Assembly: GCA_048940925.1 (NCBI GenBank)
Contig: JBHLOC010000006.1
Coordinates: 1 to 64,000, forward strand
Direction: 5' to 3'
Origin: Promethearchaeota archaeon
GTDB taxonomy: Archaea > Asgardarchaeota > Lokiarchaeia > Sigyniarchaeales > SOKP01
DNA length: 64,000 nt
A model generated the notes under the pieces. It saw nothing but the letters and a program-made list of their open reading frames with translations, was not told the origin of the DNA and made no database searches. Positions 36,120 to 46,453 of this stretch are shown here, piece after piece. The position numbers were made by a program, and so were the translations under genes. Within the stretch, counting starts at the first letter, position 1; each line of letters begins with the position of its first letter.

Positions 36120-37430
36120 TTATATATCAAGAATTATTTGACCATAATTTCCTCCTCCTCCAGGAGTATACTTTATTTCATTATTCCTGACTGCTTTTAT
36201 GACTGATGCTATATCTGGATTAAAATTTTGAATTTTATTAAAAGGAATATCAATAAGTATTTCAAATTCATTTCCAAGTTCTCTAATTATCTTTTCATAT
36301 TCATTTTGGACAGACTTACTTGTTTTACTTTTTATTCTTTTCACTGAACGTATTATATCTATTAGAGGGACTGCATTAGTATAAGGTGGTCTATGATTTG
36401 GATGCTTAGGATTCTCATATTGCGAAATCATTTCAATTCTTTCGCTTACACCCAATTTAATTTTAAAATTTTTATTTTTTTCTTCTTTACAGGCGGGACA
36501 ATTAATCTTATTTTGAGAAACTTGTTGTAAATATTTCAATCTTGAAGATTCGAGATTATTAGTATAAAAAACAATAAAATTTTCTGTAATTTTATATTGG
36601 TTAAAGATTGTGTTTATTTCTTTTTTTGCTTTCCTAAAAAGTATCCTTCTTCTGCATTTATTACAAAACATATTATAATACTTCCCAAGCTTAGGATGAA
36701 GACCAGTATTAAGGAGTATCTTTCTCCCATCTTTTCTAGATAATGCTAATAGAATTTCTTTAAAAGAGGGATTATCAATATCGAACCGATTAAATTCCCG
36801 ACCTAAAGATCGAGGATCTTGAGAGTGAGCATCACTATTACTCAAAAATGATACATCTTTTAGGCATTCAAGCCTATCTGCTAGATCAGTATTGGCAGAT
36901 AACCCTAATTCTAAAAAATACACATTTTTTGTTGCGTCTTGATAACACTGTTTTAAAGTTTCGAATTTTCCTTGACGAAATATTGCTTTAAAAGGAGTAA
37001 ATGCATGAGCAGGACCAATAATACCCCCAGAATTTGATACAATATCGACTACTTCAGGCGGTGATAAATTTACTCTCGGTCTCCCGCCCCATTGATCTAA
37101 AATATTTTTTGAATGTGATTTTAAACTTTTTTGTATTTCTTTTACTGAATCAAAATCTGGAAATAATATTACATGATGGATACTTTCAATATCTTCTATT
37201 TCTGTCTGGAGGATAAAAAAAACATCTTTATACGAAAATGATCCATCTGTCTCCTTTGTCAGATTATTTTCCATGTATTTGAGCCATTCTGGCTGTAATA
37301 TATCACCAGTACCAAGAATGTTTAATCCTTTCTTCTTACAAGTTTCTAACATAGTATCTAAATTTAATGATTTCGATACTGCTATTGAATGGGGACTATG
37401 TATATGGAGATCGGCGTTAAATATATCCAT
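36120..37430 (-). CDS. endonuclease Q family / PHP-domain protein
   Basis: ADLHIHS.HS, GTGD, PAHAFTP, ELGLSA, NSDAHS, LGREFN, GKY, GV.ERI, RPPY, PGGGG.YG. Confidence 0.88.
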   Translation of the reverse strand: MDIFNADLHIHSPHSIAVSKSLNLDTMLETCKKKGLNILGTGDILQPEWLKYMENNLTKETDGSFSYKDVFFILQTEIEDIESIHHVILFPDFDSVKEIQKSLKSHSKNILDQWGGRPRVNLSPPEVVDIVSNSGGIIGPAHAFTPFKAIFRQGKFETLKQCYQDATKNVYFLELGLSANTDLADRLECLKDVSFLSNSDAHSQDPRSLGREFNRFDIDNPSFKEILLALSRKDGRKILLNTGLHPKLGKYYNMFCNKCRRRILFRKAKKEINTIFNQYKITENFIVFYTNNLESSRLKYLQQVSQNKINCPACKEEKNKNFKIKLGVSERIEMISQYENPKHPNHRPPYTNAVPLIDIIRSVKRIKSKTSKSVQNEYEKIIRELGNEFEILIDIPFNKIQNFNPDIASVIKAVRNNEIKYTPGGGGNYGQIILDI

Positions 37431-37489
37431 CAGTTATTAAAACCTTTACTACAATAAAAAAATTTTAATAATGTATTAATTATTTGAGT

Positions 37490-38539
37490 TTATTTCATAA
37501 TAATCATTTTATCTTTAATTTGATCAGTTAATAAGATTCTAAAATATTCTAATTCCTTCTTGAAAACAACTTTTTCTAATTTTCCCTCAACTATAACTGT
37601 TTCTCCTTCTTTAGCATGTTCACAAAAACGTGCTCGAAAAGAATTTATTTCTAAAATATCTTCCAGATTTACTCTCTTTAAGTTTGACTCTTTTTCTAGG
37701 ATTTTTATAGCTTTAATATTATATGAGCAAGGTGTAAATATTGAATACTTAGAGTCGGTAATTAATACTTTAGTTTTAATTCTACCATAGTTTTTATATT
37801 GATAATCATTAAATTCTCCTTTCCAATCATTAGGGCTTTTAATATATCTTATAAAGAAATCTTTTCCATAGAATTTACCTTGGTGTAGTTTCTGCTGTTC
37901 ACTCTTCATAAATTCCTTAAATGATATGTTTGATCCGCCAACTCTCCAAGTATAATGTTTTTTATACTCCTCTTGATTGTACATTCTAATTTGATTGGAT
38001 TCAGCCAATAAATCTATTAATTTTTCTTGAAATTTAAGTGAAGTCTCTGTACCATAGATGATTATGTCAATATCTGAATCTTCTTTATTCATACCAACCA
38101 TAACAGAACCTGTAATTCCTATTGAATCTCTAGAAATATTTCCTTTACTTATAAATAATTCACACAAATCTTTAGAATATTTTTCTGTTTTAGAGAGATT
38201 CTCTTTTTCATTTAAAGCTCGTAAACAGTCCTGGGGAGTGTAAATTTTTTTAATATCGTTATTAAAGACACCTTGTATCTCCGTATCAAGCTCTTTAGAA
38301 TAAAATATATATTCAGGATATGAATTTCTTAAAAGTGAATAGCGTTCTTCTAAATTGTATACTTTTTTATATTTTGTACCTTTTTTTATTCGGTCTCCCT
38401 CTGGATGTGGATAGAACCTTAAAAAACAAATTTTTCTTTGATTGGGGTGAAGTAAGCCCTTAACATCAAAAAATAAGTTGGATTTTTTGGTTTCAATATA
38501 ATCTCCTTCAATTCCCTCAGGAATCTTCATAACTCTCAT
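37490..38539 (-). CDS. archaeal nucleotidyltransferase-domain protein
   Basis: GITGS...G.....SDIDIIIYG, F.VKG..HP, C-terminal OB-like GE.V.V.GKLE. Confidence 0.75.
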   Translation of the reverse strand: MRVMKIPEGIEGDYIETKKSNLFFDVKGLLHPNQRKICFLRFYPHPEGDRIKKGTKYKKVYNLEERYSLLRNSYPEYIFYSKELDTEIQGVFNNDIKKIYTPQDCLRALNEKENLSKTEKYSKDLCELFISKGNISRDSIGITGSVMVGMNKEDSDIDIIIYGTETSLKFQEKLIDLLAESNQIRMYNQEEYKKHYTWRVGGSNISFKEFMKSEQQKLHQGKFYGKDFFIRYIKSPNDWKGEFNDYQYKNYGRIKTKVLITDSKYSIFTPCSYNIKAIKILEKESNLKRVNLEDILEINSFRARFCEHAKEGETVIVEGKLEKVVFKKELEYFRILLTDQIKDKMIIMK

Positions 38540-38550
38540 AGTTTTGAAAG

Positions 38551-39687
38551 TTAATATTTGGAAGGAGTTTTAGTTTTAATTTGTGAAGGATATTTTGTTT
38601 TAATCTTTCTCAAATCTCTCTCAATTTTTCTTTTTTCATTTAGAAATCTTTGTTTATCCTTTTCTAATTTTTCTCTTTCACGTTTAATGAGATTCTTTTC
38701 ATTATCTAATTTATCCTTTTCTTTTCCTAGTTTTCTATAGTCATTATTTAATCTATTAAATTTTTCCTCTAAATTTGGAATTTTGTGATTTAAGGAGTTA
38801 TATTTACTTTCTAATGAAGGAATCTTCTTTTCTAATTCTTTTAATCTCGATTCATGTTGTCTTCTTCTTTTTTCTGAATCTTTTACTTCTTTATCAACCT
38901 TATCTCTAGTTTTTTTAAGATCTATTTTTTTTTTTTCAATCTCACGTGCTTTTAGATCAAGATCTTGCTTCTTATACCGCGTTTTTTCTCTTTCTTCTTT
39001 TAGTTTTCTTTTTTCATCAGAAATTCGGTTTTTCTCATCAGTGATTTCCCTTTTTAGGTCATTAATCTCTCTATTTAAATTATCTCTTTCTTTAGTTAAA
39101 TCTTTAGTTTCATTTCTTAAATCCATTAACTTATTTTCCAAATCATCAATAGTTCTGTTTAGGGCTTCTTCTCTTCTTTCCATTCCCGGAAGTTTTGTTT
39201 TAATTTGTTTGATGCGATCTTCTGTTCTTATCTTTTCCTTATTGAGCAATTGTTTCTCATTCCCAATCTCCTCTCTGATTTCTTCTAATTTCTCTTGAAA
39301 TTTTACTAATTCAGCATTTTTTTGATTTAATTCATCATTCTTCTTTCTGATCTTATCTCTGAATTGTCGTTCTTTAGTAGCAAGTTGATTTTTTTGTTGT
39401 TCAATTTGATTTTCAACTATTTTTAATTCATCATGTAAGATATCCCTTTTTTCAAGAAGATTTTTAACTTCAAGTTCTTTATCTTTCCTTTTTTTTTCAA
39501 GATCTTCGATATTATCTTTGTAATCTTGAATTTGTTTAATAATTCTTTCCCATTCACTCTTTTCTCTATCTAATTTAATTCTTTCTTTTTTTATTTTTTT
39601 TAATAACTTTTTATTAGAAAGGGGTTCAATTACCTCGCCAGGTGTTTTCTCTTGTATTTGATACTTGGGAATAGGTTCATCATTCAT
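38551..39687 (-). CDS. long K/E/R-rich coiled-coil protein
   Basis: About 330 aa of heptad-like charged helix, no globular domain recognised. Confidence 0.75.
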   Translation of the reverse strand: MNDEPIPKYQIQEKTPGEVIEPLSNKKLLKKIKKERIKLDREKSEWERIIKQIQDYKDNIEDLEKKRKDKELEVKNLLEKRDILHDELKIVENQIEQQKNQLATKERQFRDKIRKKNDELNQKNAELVKFQEKLEEIREEIGNEKQLLNKEKIRTEDRIKQIKTKLPGMERREEALNRTIDDLENKLMDLRNETKDLTKERDNLNREINDLKREITDEKNRISDEKRKLKEEREKTRYKKQDLDLKAREIEKKKIDLKKTRDKVDKEVKDSEKRRRQHESRLKELEKKIPSLESKYNSLNHKIPNLEEKFNRLNNDYRKLGKEKDKLDNEKNLIKREREKLEKDKQRFLNEKRKIERDLRKIKTKYPSQIKTKTPSKY

Positions 39688-39904
39688 GATATTTCTACAA
39701 TTTAAATTATCTTTTAATAAAATTATATAATTATTAGCTCTAAAGTGTTTGCTATTTGAAATTATCTTATTTAAATTTTTCTATGTGTTTATTCGATTTA
39801 TATATTAATTATAATTTCTATAATTTTTATAAAGAAAATATAAATAAACTATATATATAATTTCTATAATTATTTATTTCAATAGGAATGTAGGTGTTGA
39901 ATGT

Positions 39905-40294
39905 ATGGGTTTTGATGATAAGTTTGATGAGGAATTTGATGAAGAATTTGATGAAGAATTAGACGAAGATTTAGAGGAACCTTCTTCAAAGACTCCAGAA
40001 GAAATAGTTGAATCTAAAACTCCAACCACTAGAGTAGTGACTGAGGGGAAAAAGATTTCATTATACTTTATGTCAACCATTGGACCAGGTGAAAAAAAAC
40101 AAAAATTAAATGTAAATACAGGTAATAACGTGGGAGACATTAAAGAAACGGTAGCAAATTTATTTGGATTAGATCCTGCTGATTTTCATTTGTCATCAGG
40201 TGGAGTTACAATGGATGAGAGCTCAGTTTTAAAAGATTATGATATAAGTGATGGTGACGATATACTTTTAATTCCAGCAAGTACAGCGGGTTAA
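39905..40294 (+). CDS. ubiquitin-like protein 1 (acidic N-terminal extension, C-terminus ...LIPASTAG)
   Basis: beta-grasp pattern V.DIKE.V....GL.P.DF.L...G..M.....L.DY.I..GD.I.LI. Confidence 0.88.
   Translation: MGFDDKFDEEFDEEFDEELDEDLEEPSSKTPEEIVESKTPTTRVVTEGKKISLYFMSTIGPGEKKQKLNVNTGNNVGDIKETVANLFGLDPADFHLSSGGVTMDESSVLKDYDISDGDDILLIPASTAG
39911..39970 (+). repeat. 12-bp in-frame tandem repeat (tttgatga[g/a]gaa) encoding FDEE units
   Basis: tttgatgataag tttgatgaggaa tttgatgaagaa tttgatgaagaa ttagacgaagat. Confidence 0.8.
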
Positions 40295-40343
40295 ATTCTT
40301 TTTTCGGACAAAAGAAACTATAATAATACTACTTTAGCTTTAT

Positions 40344-41138
40344 TTAGTTTTTTTCTTTCCTTGAGGGAATTAAGGCAATTTCATCATCATCATCAATATT
40401 AAAGTCTTTAATCTGAGAATGTTCATTTAATAATATCCCTCCAGAAGAAAGTAGAAAAGTCTCTAGATTATAATCAAATAATCTTCCTATTCTCTCTTTG
40501 ATATGACCTATTAGTTCACTAGTATCAATTATTATTATTTTTGTTATATCACCAGACTCAACTAATGATCTGATATAAACACGGATTTGATCTTTAATTT
40601 CAATAGCGTTTACAGGAGGTGTATAAGTAATTTCATCATTAGATTTATCTCTATTTCTTAACATATTTTTGATTAACACTTTTCTCTCATTTGAATCAAA
40701 GTAAAGCATTTCCCGGATAAATAAAATCTTATCCATCTTTGATAAATCTAGTAGGTGTATTTTATTTATTTCATCTTGACTAAAAACAGAAAATATATAT
40801 TTATCAATTATAGGCATATCTTTATAGGACTCATCAGATTCAACATAATCTTCAATTAAGGGTATAGCGTCAATATATTCTTCAATTATATCAGGTGGTT
40901 TCATATTAATTGATTTTAACTCAGGTAAGTATTTCTTTTTCTTTATTTTCTCATCCCAACTGCTTTTAGAACGTATAACTGTATATACTGTACTTGTGGA
41001 TAATATCGCAACACTACCTATGGTTAGAATGAGAAATAAGGAATAATTTTCTATTCGAAATAGGAAAAAAAAGGCATAAAGCACTATACAAACAGTATAA
41101 AGAATAATAACGCTTAAAATTCTATTTTTTTTCCTCAT
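40344..41138 (-). CDS. membrane-anchored protein with C-terminal ubiquitin-like domain lacking a terminal Gly
   Basis: Two N-terminal TM helices; C-terminal IG.IKE....LF......F.LSSGG..L.E.S..KD..I.D.D.I.LIPSRKEKN aligns with the flanking Ubls. Confidence 0.8.
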   Translation of the reverse strand: MRKKNRILSVIILYTVCIVLYAFFFLFRIENYSLFLILTIGSVAILSTSTVYTVIRSKSSWDEKIKKKKYLPELKSINMKPPDIIEEYIDAIPLIEDYVESDESYKDMPIIDKYIFSVFSQDEINKIHLLDLSKMDKILFIREMLYFDSNERKVLIKNMLRNRDKSNDEITYTPPVNAIEIKDQIRVYIRSLVESGDITKIIIIDTSELIGHIKERIGRLFDYNLETFLLSSGGILLNEHSQIKDFNIDDDDEIALIPSRKEKN

Positions 41139-41223
41139 GATTTTTTAATTAGATTATGTTCTGAATTTAAAATATATAATTTAAAATTTAAATGAGATTG
41201 GAATAAAATTGAAGTTTTTATTT

Positions 41224-41895
41224 TTATACACCTTGAATTAATTGGCTAATCTTTCTATAATTCTTTATGTTAAATTTGAATAACTTTCTTTTATTATCTT
41301 TCTCAATATTCACTAATTTCAGATCTTTTAAGATATTTAAATACTTTTTAATTGTATTATGATTTTTTTTTAATCCAGATGCTATTTCTGTAATCATTAG
41401 TGCTCTGTTTTCTTGATGCATAAAACTAATTATTTTTTGAAGAATTTCTTTCTTTAAATAATAATATAATTTATCATATTTAGGATTTGAATCAAATTTA
41501 AAAAAAATTCTATGATTGTTAATTTGTTTTGATCTCACAAATTGAAATTTTTCTAAACAAGATAAGTGCCATAAAGCTTGATTACTTCCAATATGTAGAG
41601 CTTTCATTATTTCATTAATATTTGATGGGCTTTTTTTAATATAATTAAAGATCTCATTTCTTTTTGGATGTTCAATAATATTATTTTTCATTAATCTTGT
41701 GCCTGGTAAAATAACTCTTTGTTTGATTAAATTCTTTAAAATTAACTCTATTCTATTCTCATTTATATTAGGATTGTACCTAACCCTATTATTAATGAAG
41801 GATACAATTTCTCTTAAAGAAAAAAAGGTTTTTTTTGCTAAATACTCTTCTACTAATTCAAGAACAACTGATTTTGCATTATTCAGAGAACTCAT
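41224..41895 (-). CDS. multi-winged-helix DNA-binding protein
   Basis: R.EIF.YI...P..I.EI...L.I......WHL..LE and ITEIA..L.....TI..YL..L..L.LV. Confidence 0.75.
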   Translation of the reverse strand: MSSLNNAKSVVLELVEEYLAKKTFFSLREIVSFINNRVRYNPNINENRIELILKNLIKQRVILPGTRLMKNNIIEHPKRNEIFNYIKKSPSNINEIMKALHIGSNQALWHLSCLEKFQFVRSKQINNHRIFFKFDSNPKYDKLYYYLKKEILQKIISFMHQENRALMITEIASGLKKNHNTIKKYLNILKDLKLVNIEKDNKRKLFKFNIKNYRKISQLIQGV

Positions 41896-42166
41896 AAGCC
41901 TATACTTTTATTCCATTGAAAATGTTAGTCTTGTAAGTTTGTATTCTCTCTAAAACAACATTTTATTAAATATATATAATAATAGGCATTCATACAATTT
42001 ATAATATAATTTCTTATAAGCCCTAATTTGTTGTTTCTCATTTTTAGTATAACAACAAAAAACTTCAAAATCATTCCAATGGGTTTTATAATATCTTTTT
42101 AATGCGATCTTATTAAGTTTAAAAAAAATTACAAAATATAAAATGATAAAAAAGGAAGTGTTTTGA

Positions 42167-42499
42167 ATGAGTTTTGATGAATTTGATGAGGATTTAGGTG
42201 AGGAGGAACCTTTAAAATCTAAAACTCCCGCCACTAAGACCCCTTCCGCAGGAAAAAAACTTACATTATATTTCATGTCAACGATTGGTCCTGGTGAAAA
42301 AAAGGAAAAGTTAACTGTAAATGACAGTAATCAAGTAAGAGATATTAAACGAACTTTAGGTAATTTATATGGACTTGATCCTAATGACTTTCATTTATCT
42401 TCTGGTGGAGTTACAATGGATGAAAATAGTTCTTTAAGAGACTATAATGTAAATGATGGCGATGATATTCTTTTGATCCCTGCGAGTACTGCTGGGTAA
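42167..42499 (+). CDS. ubiquitin-like protein 2 (C-terminus ...LIPASTAG)
   Basis: Close paralog of Ubl1 (LYFMSTIGPGEKK, DFHLSSGGVTMDE, GDDILLIPASTAG); directly upstream of E1. Confidence 0.9.
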   Translation: MSFDEFDEDLGEEEPLKSKTPATKTPSAGKKLTLYFMSTIGPGEKKEKLTVNDSNQVRDIKRTLGNLYGLDPNDFHLSSGGVTMDENSSLRDYNVNDGDDILLIPASTAG

Positions 42500-42532
42500 A
42501 CTTATATAAGTTTCTTCATAAAATATAATATT

Positions 42533-42569
42533 AGGGCTTTAAGCCCTTCAATTTTTTTATTTTTTTTTT
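42533..42569 (+). terminator. hairpin plus T-tract after Ubl2
   Basis: AGGGCT-TTA-AGCCCT followed by a long T run. Confidence 0.55.
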
Positions 42570-42577
42570 ATTTATTA

Positions 42578-43813
42578 TTGGTGATAATATTGAAAAAGAG
42601 TTCAGATTTTTTTAGTAAAGACCTAACATCGGAAGAAAGAAATTTATATGACCGACAATTTAGACTCGAAGGGTGGTCACAGAAATTAGTAAAAAACTCT
42701 CGAGTGTTAATGGCTGGTGTAGGGGGATTAGGTTGTGAAATTGCAAAAAACCTGGCAATGTTGGGTGTAGGTCATATAGACCTAGTAGATTTAGATATCA
42801 TAGAGCATTCCAATTTAAATCGTCAAATTTTGTTTGCAGGTGCTAAATTAGGAGAACCTAAAGCTGTTGTAGCAGCAAAAAAATTAACTGAAATTAATCC
42901 TAACATAATTATCAATGGATATCATACTTCGTTAGAAAGATTGGATCCAGCATTATATCAAGCTGCTGATGTCGTTGTGGGGGGTCTAGACTCCATGAAT
43001 GCTCGGTTGAATTTAAATGCTCAATGTATAAGATTTAGAAAACCTTTAGTGGATGGAGGTGTTTCAGGTTATCATGGTCATGTTTATACTGTTTTTCCAT
43101 ACAAAAATGCATGTTATGAATGTAATCCACTCCCCGTAGGAGAAAGTGATGAGATGGCGGCATGTACAGTAGTAGGAGTGCCAAGAAAAAGAATCCATTG
43201 TGTTTTCAAAGGAGATATGGCCTTTAAGGAAGAATTTGACAGGGATCCTAATCCAAAGAACATAGATGACATAAAATATATTCAAAAAATTGCTAATGAA
43301 CTAGTAAATAAACATAACTTCCCCCCAGAGTATACTGAAGATGATATAGTCAAAATTATTGATAGGCATGATCCAGGAATTATCACCATCAATGCTGTTA
43401 TTTCAGCATTACAGTCGCATGAAGTCGTAAAAATTCTTCATTGGAATAAAGGTCATAAGGGTATCGGTAAACCTATTAAATCTTATGTTATTTTCAATGC
43501 TATGACAATGATGTTTTACCATATTGAAAAGAAAAGAAATCCAGAATGTTCTCAATGTGGAAAAAATGTTCGAAGATTCGTAGTGAAATTAAAAGAAAAC
43601 TCTCCATGTATTAATATAATCAAAACATTAGAAAAACATGGTTTTAAGTTAGATCCTGATCTCGAACCTGTTATAACATTACTAGATTTTAATGACGTCA
43701 AAATAATAGATTTAGAACAAAATCCAATTAAAAATGGTTTAAGAAATTATGAATTTATGACAGTTGCCGGGTTTATTGATGGAGAAATTTTTGTAACCTT
43801 AAAATTAAAATAA
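42578..43813 (+). CDS. E1 ubiquitin-activating enzyme (ThiF/Uba3-like)
   Basis: YDRQ, GVGGLGCEIAKNL, DLD.IE.SNLNRQ.LF, CYEC, catalytic ACT...PR...HC, RNPECSQC; start probably TTG at 42590 after GGTGA. Confidence 0.93.
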   Translation: MVIILKKSSDFFSKDLTSEERNLYDRQFRLEGWSQKLVKNSRVLMAGVGGLGCEIAKNLAMLGVGHIDLVDLDIIEHSNLNRQILFAGAKLGEPKAVVAAKKLTEINPNIIINGYHTSLERLDPALYQAADVVVGGLDSMNARLNLNAQCIRFRKPLVDGGVSGYHGHVYTVFPYKNACYECNPLPVGESDEMAACTVVGVPRKRIHCVFKGDMAFKEEFDRDPNPKNIDDIKYIQKIANELVNKHNFPPEYTEDDIVKIIDRHDPGIITINAVISALQSHEVVKILHWNKGHKGIGKPIKSYVIFNAMTMMFYHIEKKRNPECSQCGKNVRRFVVKLKENSPCINIIKTLEKHGFKLDPDLEPVITLLDFNDVKIIDLEQNPIKNGLRNYEFMTVAGFIDGEIFVTLKLK

Positions 43814-43923
43814 TAATTTAGTCAAAAAATATTTTTTAAAAAAATTTTATAGAATACTTAAAAATTTAACTATTAATTTTGTTATTAAAAATATAGAATA
43901 ATAAATAGTAAAGGATTGAGAAT

Positions 43924-44451
43924 ATGAGTATAAGAAGTAGTCGAATCTCACAAGATTTTGCAGGATTAAAAAAATTATATAAACAAGGAACAATTGTTCA
44001 GTTAAAACCATTTAATCCCAATAGAAAGAGTATTGATCATTTAGCAATAACTATTAAAGGTCCTAAAGGTACTGCTTATGCGGGTGGTCTTTTTAAATTA
44101 GAAATGAAATTTCCTGCTCAGTATCCTAGGCAACCACCTTTTGTTAGATTACATACTCCAATTTGGCATCCAAATTTTTGGGCAAAACCGAGTGAGTATA
44201 CAGGTCAGAGGAATATTTGCTTAGCACTTGTAGATCCATCTTTAGTTGGAAAAAAAGGGGGGTGGAGCCCATCAAAAACAGCTGTTACCGTAGTTCAGGC
44301 TATAACTGCGATGTTAAATACACGAGGTAAGTATGTAAATCCAACTGATGTTTTTAACAAGAAAGCTGCAATAGAAATGATGAAAAATCAGAAGTTTTTT
44401 GAGAAAAAAGTCAAAAACCTTGTTAAAAAGTATGCTAATAAGAAATGGTGA
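43924..44451 (+). CDS. E2 ubiquitin-conjugating enzyme
   Basis: I.GP.GT.Y.GG.F.L...FP..YP..PP, WHPN, catalytic NICL, W.P. Confidence 0.93.
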   Translation: MSIRSSRISQDFAGLKKLYKQGTIVQLKPFNPNRKSIDHLAITIKGPKGTAYAGGLFKLEMKFPAQYPRQPPFVRLHTPIWHPNFWAKPSEYTGQRNICLALVDPSLVGKKGGWSPSKTAVTVVQAITAMLNTRGKYVNPTDVFNKKAAIEMMKNQKFFEKKVKNLVKKYANKKW

Positions 44452-45278
44452 AATTTAAAATGGGAGAAAGAGATTCACATATAGATTCCATTAAAAAAAC
44501 AATAAAATTGAAGATAAAAGATATAATTAAGAAGGAATTGCTGGAAGAAATCTTTGAAGAATTAAAATTGGAAGAGAAAGAATTAGTTAATGAAATTAGT
44601 TCGATGATTTCTAAAAAACCTCCTGAAAAGCAAATAATAAAACATTCAACTACTACACCTATCAAATCAAAAACAATAAAAGAAGAGAAAAAATATACAG
44701 ATGAAGATAAAATAGAAAAAGAAGTGTATATTTCGGTTAAAGCAATTCTAAAAGTAGCAAGTCATGCCCTAAAGTATGCGAATTCTAAAATTCCTAGACA
44801 AAATTGGGTAGAAGTAATAGGATTACTCGCAGGTAAAGTAGAAAATAACCGTAACATCTTACATATTGAAGATTACTATCCTATGGGTCATGGAACAGCT
44901 GTTTATGCTGAAATAAAAAATTATAAAAACTATGCTAGAGCTTTTCGAGATATTAAAAAGCAAAAGTTATTTATCTGTGGTTGGGCACATAGTCATCCTT
45001 CTTACGGATGTTTTATGTCTAATGAAGATATTGGTACTCAAACAAGATACCAAAAACTTTGGAATAAAGCTGTTGCCCTTGTAATCGATCCTTATCTTAT
45101 TGATGGAACTTCAGCTGGTTTTGAAATATATCGTGCAGATTTAACCACAAAAACTTGGTATCCTTTGGTTTATGGTATTAAAGGGTCATTAGATATTCGC
45201 ATGCTACCAGAAATACTAAATTTTATGAATCCGATAATTGAAGGGAAAGCAGTTTATCTCGAATATGATGAAAATTGA
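44445..45278 (+). CDS. JAMM/MPN+ metallo-isopeptidase (Rpn11/CSN5-like)
   Basis: EVIGLL.G, GW.HSHPSYGCFMS.EDI.TQ..YQ......VALVIDP. Confidence 0.92.
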   Translation: MVKFKMGERDSHIDSIKKTIKLKIKDIIKKELLEEIFEELKLEEKELVNEISSMISKKPPEKQIIKHSTTTPIKSKTIKEEKKYTDEDKIEKEVYISVKAILKVASHALKYANSKIPRQNWVEVIGLLAGKVENNRNILHIEDYYPMGHGTAVYAEIKNYKNYARAFRDIKKQKLFICGWAHSHPSYGCFMSNEDIGTQTRYQKLWNKAVALVIDPYLIDGTSAGFEIYRADLTTKTWYPLVYGIKGSLDIRMLPEILNFMNPIIEGKAVYLEYDEN

Positions 45279-46453
45279 AACAGATAAATTTTGGTGATTT
45301 TAGAACTGTGGCTAAAATTAAATCTGTGGCAATTGTTCTGGGGATATTTCTATTAATAGCTATAATACATGGTATTATATCAGATTCATTCAATGTATTT
45401 GTAAGTTGGATACTAATCGGAATATGGCTAATTTATTCTTTTAAAGTCTTAAAAAATATAAAACAATATCGAGAATTTAATTCTCCTCATAATACTGCTT
45501 TTTTTACCATTGGACCTGTATTTATTGGGATCTTTTATTCAACTTGGGGAAATTTTACTGGCATATTAGGCGAGAATCTCCTCGAGGGAACGGGATTATA
45601 TTTAAGTTGGTGGGGTATATTATTCGGCTTTCCTTATTTAGTATACGGATCTTATTCTTTATATCGGTGTTTCAAAAAATATAATGTAATATATTTTGGT
45701 ACGAAAGCGATAAATGCTCGTACAATTGGTTATTTACTATCTTTAATAGTTATTTTTTACATTATTTTTTATTGGATAATATTTTATGCTGTTATTGATT
45801 TTTATGATTCTATCTTAATCCCTGTTAATTTTTATGCAGATCTTAATCTTATACTCATACTTATTAGTACAATTTTAATTTTTATTATTTCTGGTATTTT
45901 TGGCACACAAAGAAGATTGCCCCCATTAACGAGAGATTATATTGCAAGACGTAGAAATAGATTAAATCATTTGACTTCTCCTCAGAGAAATTCAAATTCT
46001 AGAAAAAATAGTATAATCACAAATGGAACAACCAGATCATCTAGAATTACACCCACTACTCAAAGAAGATCAACTCAAACGAGTATAAAAACAACCTCTC
46101 GAACTGTAAGTAGAAAGAAAACATCAAAGCCTAGTATAATTCCCCACAGGACCATAAGCTCAAGGGACTTTAATAAGTACAAACCAAGAGCGGGGCTTCT
46201 TTCGGTAGAGGATTTTAAATGCATTTTTTGTTTTCATTTACCAAAATTGCCAGAAGATAAGGGTAGAGGAATAGTTTTATGTCCAAAATGTAGATATCCT
46301 GCTCATGCAGATGAATTTAAAGATTGGATGCAAAATTCAAATCTATGCTCAAGATGTAATGCGATAATTCCATCAAACTATAGAAGAAATCCTAAGATAA
46401 TCAGTATAAAAAACTATATTATTATCTATAAAAGTTTATTAAAAAAAAAATAA
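45275..46453 (+). CDS. multi-pass membrane protein with C-terminal RING-like finger (putative E3 ligase)
   Basis: About 6 TM helices, S/T/R-rich linker, CIFC-x16-CPKC-x4-H..E...W.....CSRC; overlaps the JAMM stop codon. Confidence 0.75.
   Translation: MKQINFGDFRTVAKIKSVAIVLGIFLLIAIIHGIISDSFNVFVSWILIGIWLIYSFKVLKNIKQYREFNSPHNTAFFTIGPVFIGIFYSTWGNFTGILGENLLEGTGLYLSWWGILFGFPYLVYGSYSLYRCFKKYNVIYFGTKAINARTIGYLLSLIVIFYIIFYWIIFYAVIDFYDSILIPVNFYADLNLILILISTILIFIISGIFGTQRRLPPLTRDYIARRRNRLNHLTSPQRNSNSRKNSIITNGTTRSSRITPTTQRRSTQTSIKTTSRTVSRKKTSKPSIIPHRTISSRDFNKYKPRAGLLSVEDFKCIFCFHLPKLPEDKGRGIVLCPKCRYPAHADEFKDWMQNSNLCSRCNAIIPSNYRRNPKIISIKNYIIIYKSLLKKK

Follow-up and report, generated by a model that had tools for sequence, protein, structure and literature searches.

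To our knowledge, the archaeal ubiquitin cascades reconstituted to date combine a Gly-Gly ubiquitin with a small, soluble RING protein. In Ca. Caldiarchaeum subterraneum, a modifier with a pro-form tail after its last Gly, a single-chain activating enzyme (E1), a conjugating enzyme (E2) with an HPN-Cys active site, a small soluble RING-H2 (C3H2C3) protein and an Rpn11-like JAMM protease are encoded in one Ub/E1/E2/srfp/Rpn11 operon (PMC5654768, PMC6043591). An operon of the Helarchaeia joins di-Gly ubiquitin, E1, E2 and a soluble RING protein to genes of the endosomal sorting machinery ESCRT, and encodes its own substrate, UEV-Vps23 (10.1101/2023.07.25.550441). For Lokiarchaeum GC14_75, which carries the Lokiarch_29330 cluster, a third study reports that ubiquitin genes lie apart from the ESCRT genes (PMC9192718), as they do in the genome analysed here. 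We describe a nine-gene locus at positions 38551 to 46453 of a 64,000-nucleotide stretch (the window) of contig JBHLOC010000006.1 from a Promethearchaeota archaeon (assembly GCA_048940925.1; genome GC content 28%). An earlier note on this DNA had proposed a complete, apparently membrane-directed ubiquitin-like (Ubl) system. From sequence and structure models, we place a probability of about 0.6 on a dedicated, vertically inherited Asgard Ubl pathway that would act at the inner face of the membrane and that, in one family, appears to have acquired a regulator.

The core of the locus encodes a Ubl modifier (the tag), E1, E2, a JAMM protease and TM-RING, a candidate ligase (E3) with transmembrane (TM) helices. 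With the Caldiarchaeum operon it has all five components and the pro-form tails in common. Unlike there, the tag ends in Ala-Gly (AG) and bears an acidic, motif-containing tail, the E2 has two insertions, the RING is a C4-H-E-C2 finger on a six-helix membrane protein, and a coiled-coil gene (CC) and a putative regulator pair, a winged helix-turn-helix (wHTH) protein and a membrane Ubl protein (TM-Ubl), are linked. As in the Helarchaeia operon, the cluster would encode its own substrate, for which we propose the coiled-coil protein, but it has no di-Gly ubiquitin, soluble RING or ESCRT genes of the kind found there. By alignment, the core is an ortholog of the Lokiarch_29330 cluster and hence of a known kind, not new: its E2 is identical to Lokiarch_29330 at 38 of 41 active-site residues in the Hatano 2022 supplement (PMC9192718). 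The searched passages of PMC9192718 contain no account of an AG end, a membrane RING, a lysine motif or a wHTH/TM-Ubl pair. In literature searches whose coverage mostly excluded subscription papers, we likewise found no description of an AG tag, a membrane RING, an [ST]-K-[TIV]-P motif or a wHTH/TM-Ubl pair. What is undescribed in that literature is thus the AG end, the six-helix RING with a Glu ligand, the shared Lys motif and the wHTH and TM-Ubl add-on, while the core itself is known; it is reportedly among the clusters listed in Spang 2015.

Conservation of the locus and its enzymes

All nine predicted open reading frames (ORFs) proved to be real. Their ubiquitin, ThiF, UQ_con, JAB and HTH domains are confirmed by Pfam matches. 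The features of the locus are as follows.

38551..39687, minus strand: coiled-coil protein (CC), 378 residues; generic coiled-coil matches only
39905..40294, plus strand: Ubl1, 129 residues; Pfam ubiquitin, E 3e-5
40344..41138, minus strand: TM-Ubl, 264 residues; membrane hairpin, middle domain and C-terminal Ubl
41224..41895, minus strand: wHTH, tandem winged-helix protein, 223 residues; HTH_5, E 3.8e-8
41982..42097, no strand: two conserved non-coding blocks (41982-42015 and 42059-42097), from 18 aligned intergenic regions of the genus
42167..42499, plus strand: Ubl2, the main modifier, 110 residues; Pfam ubiquitin, E 1.4e-6
42533..42570, plus strand: terminator-like hairpin and T-run in the Ubl2-E1 gap, from a sequence scan
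42590..43813, plus strand: single-chain E1; ThiF, E 1.3e-58
43924..44451, plus strand: E2, 175 residues; UQ_con, E 7.5e-26
44460..45278, plus strand: JAMM, Rpn11-like protease with an N-terminal extension; JAB, E 6.5e-14
45308..46453, plus strand: TM-RING, six-helix E3 candidate; RING/U-box-fold finger at 46220-46357

The nine genes occur in the same order in 17 of 20 loci of the genus, between ftsZ and folE2/cofGH, and the five-gene core (Ubl, E1, E2, JAMM and TM-RING) is found together in 54-57 of the 57 loci with this E1 and E2. The synteny check suggested in the earlier note therefore speaks for a conserved unit, whose core spans Lokiarchaeia and other Asgard classes, including Hodarchaeales and Borrarchaeum; E2 orthologs could be named from Hodarchaeales, Heimdallarchaeota and Borrarchaeum. 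In five families, 47/54, 21/26, 8/10, 4/5 and 13/16 genomes proved to carry the tag; searches of 59 and 19 genomes from two others did not find it. The distribution of the membrane RING follows that of the tag. The system is single copy, with E1 identity of 79-94% across the genus. The locus looks like a vertically inherited, housekeeping-like one and not like a defence island.

Ubl-E1-E2-JAMM sets serve defence in bacteria. Antiviral defence was one of the roles suggested by the earlier note; it could consist in the tagging of virion proteins, in the manner of bacterial Bil/Bub, and the existence of poly-Ubl and fusion forms of the tag would fit it. However, the patchy, mobile, defence-island occurrence that characterises Bil/Bub and Cap2/3 of the cyclic-oligonucleotide-based antiphage signalling system (CBASS) is not seen here: the locus is present in 47 of the 54 genomes of its family, its E1 is highly similar throughout the genus, its housekeeping neighbourhood is fixed, and PADLOC yields generic matches only. 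We regard a defence role as very unlikely.

The catalytic motifs of all three enzymes are intact. E1 (numbered on a 411-residue ORF from 42578) has a GxGxxG motif at residue 47, zinc pairs at residues 179 and 324, and catalytic C196 within CT-x4-P-x4-HC, a motif present in 40 of 41 homologs. Its best PDB matches are UBA1, UBA2 and UBA3 (E 1e-35 to 1e-38), to which it is nearer than to ThiF. In E2, HPN at 82-84 and catalytic C99 are kept in 35/35 sequences, with invariant insertions on both sides of the catalytic Cys. JAMM (numbered from 44445) retains E123, H182, H184 and D195, the motif being found in 34 of 35 homologs; its best PDB match is Caldiarchaeum Rpn11 (E 1.9e-14). Such conservation makes it very probable that the Ubl-E1-E2-JAMM cascade is functional. 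The system is also separate from the other Ubl systems of the genome, and its description as a complete, dedicated Ubl-E1-E2-JAMM-RING set stands.

The Ala-Gly tag

The AG end that had been noticed in the two modifiers of this locus is general: all 206 distinct free tags end in x-S-[TIVS]-A-G, and the C-terminal di-glycine is absent. Thirty-nine of them bear 1-6 additional residues, as expected of precursors trimmed after the final Gly. Proteomics based on Gly-Gly remnants would miss such a tag, which carries neither Arg nor Lys close to its end. Pfam PF00240 is found in 26/26 tag members. The model of Ubl2 (predicted local distance difference test, pLDDT, 89.5) has ISG15 and ubiquitin as its best folds (Z 13-14), and aligns without gaps to residues 14-70 of ubiquitin, with the terminal Gly in register with G76. 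Ubiquitin residues I44, K48, K63, R42, R72 and R74 are all replaced, with Ser at the I44 position, and the tag therefore probably has its own readers. Two [ST]-K-T-P motifs lie in the acidic tail region of Ubl2 (K19 and K24). Ubl1, which has an acidic tail with two S-K-T-P motifs, a ubiquitin fold and the C-terminus STAG, is 76% identical to Ubl2 over the domain and is, according to the tree, a family-level duplicate of it.

We considered a link to UFM1, prompted by the single terminal Gly and by the wHTH, TM and coiled-coil neighbours. The UFM1 profile PF03671 matched 0/26 tag members at E 1 and nothing else at the locus, and UFM1 was not among the top 50 folds for the tag model, which are ubiquitin, ISG15, UBL and SUMO domains. 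On these results we set the link aside, although a distant one may exist.

The tag also occurs in larger proteins. Three AG-Ubls lie in tandem in a single metagenomic ORF (L228:59-1177, P0332) with internal STAG junctions, as in a polyubiquitin gene. Proteins of ~585 residues that combine a vWA domain with an AG-Ubl at the C-terminus (STAG plus tail) are encoded just 3' of the TM-RING gene (L053:9691-11448, L064:2213-3964), and might possibly be conjugated whole, as tags. A HerA/DUF87-type ATPase is fused to a C-terminal AG-Ubl beside the coiled-coil gene (L160:12072-13814, L161:1910-3718). Proteins of 277-307 residues have a C-terminal Ubl ending in SSTAG (L048:323-1156, L176:12770-13660, L177:9583-10506), two of them with an N-terminal CxxC, and Ubl fusions with this ending were numerous in a representative search.

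The tag could serve as a sorting signal for the ESCRT machinery, sorting being one of the roles that the earlier note suggested. Links between the ubiquitin and ESCRT systems of Asgard archaea are known from other classes (PMC9192718), and this genome has ESCRT genes. These are, however, on contigs C54 and C62, with none in the locus. The Loki ubiquitin that was tested with ESCRT-I in that study, and shown to bind the UEV, is Lokiarch_37670, which matches a gene on contig C18 here (ending in AGG) and not this locus, and the tag lacks I44. Since the UEV-binding ubiquitin is the C18 gene and the ESCRT genes lie elsewhere, this locus is not the ESCRT-linked one, and we regard a sorting role as very unlikely.

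The coiled-coil protein and the lysine motif

Across the whole proteome, [ST]-K-[TIV]-P is about as frequent as chance would predict (107 occurrences versus 99 in shuffled sequences). Per 1000 residues, it occurs 9.6-11.6 times in Ubl homologs and 7.0 times in CC homologs, compared with 0.078 times in the proteome, and only 3 of ~4135 proteins, the three AG-Ubls, have at least two copies. CC has a K-T-P motif at each end (K14 and K373), and copies in CC homologs cluster at both ends. CC is moreover encoded head-to-head with a tag gene in several families. This arrangement and the shared motif enrichment support the assignment of CC to the system, in which it is a candidate built-in substrate or scaffold. 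The usual context of the motif is hydrophobic-x-[ST]-K-[TIV]-P. Because its Thr is exchangeable for Ile or Val, a phosphosite is disfavoured, which leaves the Lys as the candidate acceptor. From these sequence patterns we give motif-directed conjugation slightly less than an even chance. CC homologs were not detected in Heimdall-side loci, where a Lys-rich protein with 4-9 copies of K[TIV]P stands in the place of CC. JAMM was rejected as a further motif carrier, as its enrichment comes in part from a site within the fold and occurrence in its tail is patchy (21/53).

In the SUMO pathway, too, the modifier has a flexible N-terminal tail in which a Lys motif is repeated and a partner protein shares that motif, and the E1 here is similar to UBA2 and UBA3. 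In contrast to SUMO, the system here has an Ala-Gly end, a single-chain E1 and a JAMM instead of a Ulp protease, and the E1 and E2 matches do not single out SUMO enzymes.

The membrane RING protein

TM-RING is modelled as six N-terminal helices, a disordered linker rich in Ser, Thr and Arg, and a folded C-terminal domain. Across 68 homologs, the cytoplasmic segments average 1.9-4.9 Lys or Arg residues and the outer loops 0-0.1, a positive-inside bias that places both termini, and hence the finger, in the cytoplasm. Model and charge thus bear out the proposal of a polytopic E3 candidate. Both structure searches align residues 307-392 to ligases of the RING and U-box types, with modest scores (best RING-domain match, Z 7.6, root-mean-square deviation (rmsd) 4.2 over 74 residues). 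The finger has the ligands C4-H-E-C2, with Glu at ligand 6 in 169/170 sequences.

If the E2 itself read the motif, as Ubc9 does, cytoplasmic targets could be tagged without an E3, and the membrane zinc-finger protein would be a substrate, scaffold or sensor. A peptide motif could be read by the two invariant insertions that flank the active site of E2, and the finger departs from the RING consensus at ligand 6. On the other side, it has a RING/U-box fold with a conserved Trp, no other part of the protein is as well conserved, and the TM-RING gene follows E2 in nearly every locus. We consider E3-free tagging quite unlikely, and the membrane RING likely to be the E3 of the cascade. From the location of the ligase, we infer that membrane proteins are its substrates.

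The main rival for the purpose of the pathway is quality control resembling endoplasmic reticulum-associated degradation (ERAD), in which the membrane RING would spot damaged or unassembled membrane proteins and tag them for extraction and proteasomal degradation, like Hrd1 or Doa10. The layout of a polytopic membrane protein, a linker and a cytoplasmic RING is that of the ERAD ligases Hrd1 and Doa10/MARCH6, and in three genomes of the family (L176, L178 and L179) the immediate neighbours of CC are genes for a proteasome subunit and a large RING protein. The membrane part aligns with yeast Hrd1 over 163 residues (Z 6.3, rmsd 6.8, 5% identity), but this Z is within the range of the tool for unrelated helical bundles and below that of designed proteins. 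The modifier is another one, and ubiquitin-type receptors would not read a tag with Ser at I44 and without K48 and K63. Neither Cdc48 nor Hrd3-type genes are in the locus, and the proteasome gene of this genome is on another contig. We think ERAD-like degradation unlikely.

Homology to Hrd1 or Doa10 could not be established: Foldseek gave no match at E 0.001, and VIA gave only Z under 8. The membrane domain had no profile match among PDB sequences, and for residues 1-225 the Atlas returned no usable feature match and, by shape, only the Promethearchaeota clusters to which the protein itself belongs. There is no established relative of the membrane part, which does not make its fold new. A RING-less six-helix paralog (~195 residues) is encoded directly after or near TM-RING in Heimdall-side families (L163-L173). 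In the three genomes with a proteasome gene beside CC, the proteasome subunit gene is followed by one for a 685-residue protein with a C-terminal RING (L176:2605-5372, L178:11432-14241, L179:11612-14397); in this genome the two are at C67:14639-17428.

A predicted membrane-bound regulator pair

TM-Ubl has TM helices at 7-25 and 33-51, a middle domain at ~60-184 and a C-terminal Ubl. The earlier note listed it as a membrane-tethered Ubl paralog. It ends in IPSRKEKN, with no Gly at the terminal position of the modifier, and is thus not a tag; among its relatives, 2 of 18 end in RG one residue later. Its Ubl domain matches the AG-Ubl profile with 99.2% probability and, in the tree, sits on a long branch that arises from the local tag. 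Only one family has TM-Ubl, with 98/134 matches there (some to other proteins with the middle domain) and 1 weak match among 19 genomes of other families. Rather than a modifier, it is a predicted regulator-binding membrane protein.

In a complex prediction, wHTH and TM-Ubl scored 0.78, compared with 0.19 for the best of 3 controls. The mark used for such scores is reached by 58/80 solved complexes and 2/110 mismatched pairs, a calibration that is only roughly valid here because the alignments were our own. At least 96% of contacts are common to the runs, and pLDDT of the partner is at least 78. The predicted interface joins TM-Ubl 85-184, leaving the Ubl domain uninvolved, to wHTH 12-129, including helix 103-118; the third wHTH is free. 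Additional wHTH matches lie at 148-206 of the wHTH protein, whose gene is divergent from Ubl2-E1. The pair could act in either of two ways, by sequestering wHTH or by tethering DNA to the membrane. Feedback on the pathway through wHTH is a tentative proposal.

The middle domain of TM-Ubl belongs to a Loki family without a Pfam match, and also ends large cell-surface proteins (WD40, beta-helix) encoded beside wHTH genes of the same type at Ubl-free loci. At L210-L217, wHTH genes accompany large surface proteins with WD40 or beta-helix domains outside, one TM helix and a cytoplasmic domain of the TM-Ubl type. This arrangement, with a wHTH-binding domain on large cell-surface proteins, points to an undescribed Loki transmembrane signalling module without a Pfam name. 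The wHTH/TM-Ubl pair would thus be a family-level add-on, in which a disabled tag was joined to a membrane-regulator module that already existed in Loki archaea. As an analogy, membrane proteins that hold a DNA-binding protein, as predicted here, are known from anti-sigma factors and Mlc-PtsG. HERP and TMUB1 likewise carry a non-conjugatable Ubl on a membrane hairpin; the Ubl domain here derives from the local tag.

Proposed pathway

We propose that JAMM cuts tailed forms of the tag after Ala-Gly, and also strips the tag from targets. E1 would activate the tag on C196 and hand it to C99 of E2, and the membrane RING would dock the charged E2 and so restrict transfer to membrane-located proteins. 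The tag would probably be joined to the Lys of hydrophobic-x-[ST]-K-[TIV]-P, which would permit chains via the tail of the tag itself; this step is the least certain. Its motif Lys would also make the coiled-coil protein a built-in substrate, by a SUMO-like logic. Neither wHTH nor TM-Ubl would be an enzyme or a tag. The middle domain of TM-Ubl would hold wHTH at the membrane, and its disabled Ubl domain would tie wHTH to the pathway, probably as feedback on the divergent Ubl2-E1 promoter.

Several observations weigh against this pathway. In the RING, Glu replaces one zinc-binding Cys, and the last Cys is followed by Asn, Ser or Asp, where many RING ligases carry Arg; the scores for its fold are modest (at most Z 7.6). 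Some relatives encode a soluble TM-RING paralog consisting of linker and RING without the membrane domain (L218:8634-9302, L220:2712-3401). Instead of accepting the tag, the motif could serve for docking, and the proteins that replace CC in Heimdall-side loci are 18-29% Lys, which inflates their motif counts. It is from gene position only that wHTH is taken to regulate the operon, and genome G024 has a wHTH-TM-Ubl-Ubl1-CC block apart from Ubl2-E1. The soluble RING paralog at L218 and L220 adjoins an AG-Ubl and a wHTH/TM-Ubl pair.

A more far-reaching version is that this is a second, non-Gly-Gly Asgard Ubl pathway, extending from Lokiarchaeia to Hodarchaeales, in which a membrane E3 directs conjugation to a short Lys motif and which, in one family, governs its own expression through a transcription factor that it keeps at the membrane or sets free. 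We regard this as doubtful. If true, it would be a prokaryotic example of membrane-to-chromosome signalling under Ubl control, and both membrane E3 ligases and conjugation at a consensus site would predate eukaryotes. The locus is a compact system for asking whether membrane-embedded E3s and motif-directed conjugation did so. The core is present in Hodarchaeales, the proposed sister lineage of eukaryotes. Since a candidate substrate and acceptor lysine can be named, the test is direct.

Gene starts and transcription

As claimed previously, Ubl2, E1, E2, JAMM and TM-RING are co-oriented, all five on the plus strand. The overlap reported for the last three is an artefact of longest-ORF calling. 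A GGTGA motif lies 5-11 nt before later starts at 42590 (E1), 44460 (JAMM) and 45308 (TM-RING), and with the starts placed after these motifs the overlaps vanish, leaving gaps of 8 nt between E2 and JAMM and 29 nt between JAMM and TM-RING. The N-termini of homologs agree with the later starts, and a 381-residue database protein (P0121) that is 100% identical to TM-RING supports 45308. The second Ubl, TM-Ubl, wHTH and CC are all present upstream, as described; their strands had gone unmentioned. Ubl1 is on the plus strand, between CC and TM-Ubl (both minus), and CC, TM-Ubl and wHTH are antisense to the core operon, implying at least four transcription units rather than one.

The intergenic region common to the divergent wHTH and Ubl2 genes is conserved in the alignment, and its two blocks may comprise TATA-like elements and a possible operator. 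A promoter scan was at chance level (54 versus 50). The hairpin and T-run between Ubl2 and E1 are both kept in the genus, and the T-run alone in other families. They resemble a terminator, which would yield more tag than enzyme.

Other Ubl genes and neighbouring genes

The Loki 'ubiquitin' genes fall into several distinct systems, and at least three E1/E2 sets are encoded in this genome. One, at C41:100351-102685, comprises a GG-ending Ubl, an E2, a 294-residue E1 and a small JAMM, and adjoins genes resembling longin/roadblock-GTPase proteins. A further E1/E2 pair is on contig C87, its E2 corresponding to Lokiarch_10330 in the PMC9192718 supplement. A third AG-Ubl stands alone at C41:254098-254484; its first-start ORF has a 17-residue hydrophobic tail after AG. 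Three JAMM-domain genes (319-494 residues) are clustered at C5:41942-46989. Finally, positions 36120-38539 of the window hold two conserved genes without a Pfam match (436 and 349 residues), which are co-oriented downstream of CC in the genus. The 349-residue gene starts 11 nt past the CC stop, and the two may share a transcript.

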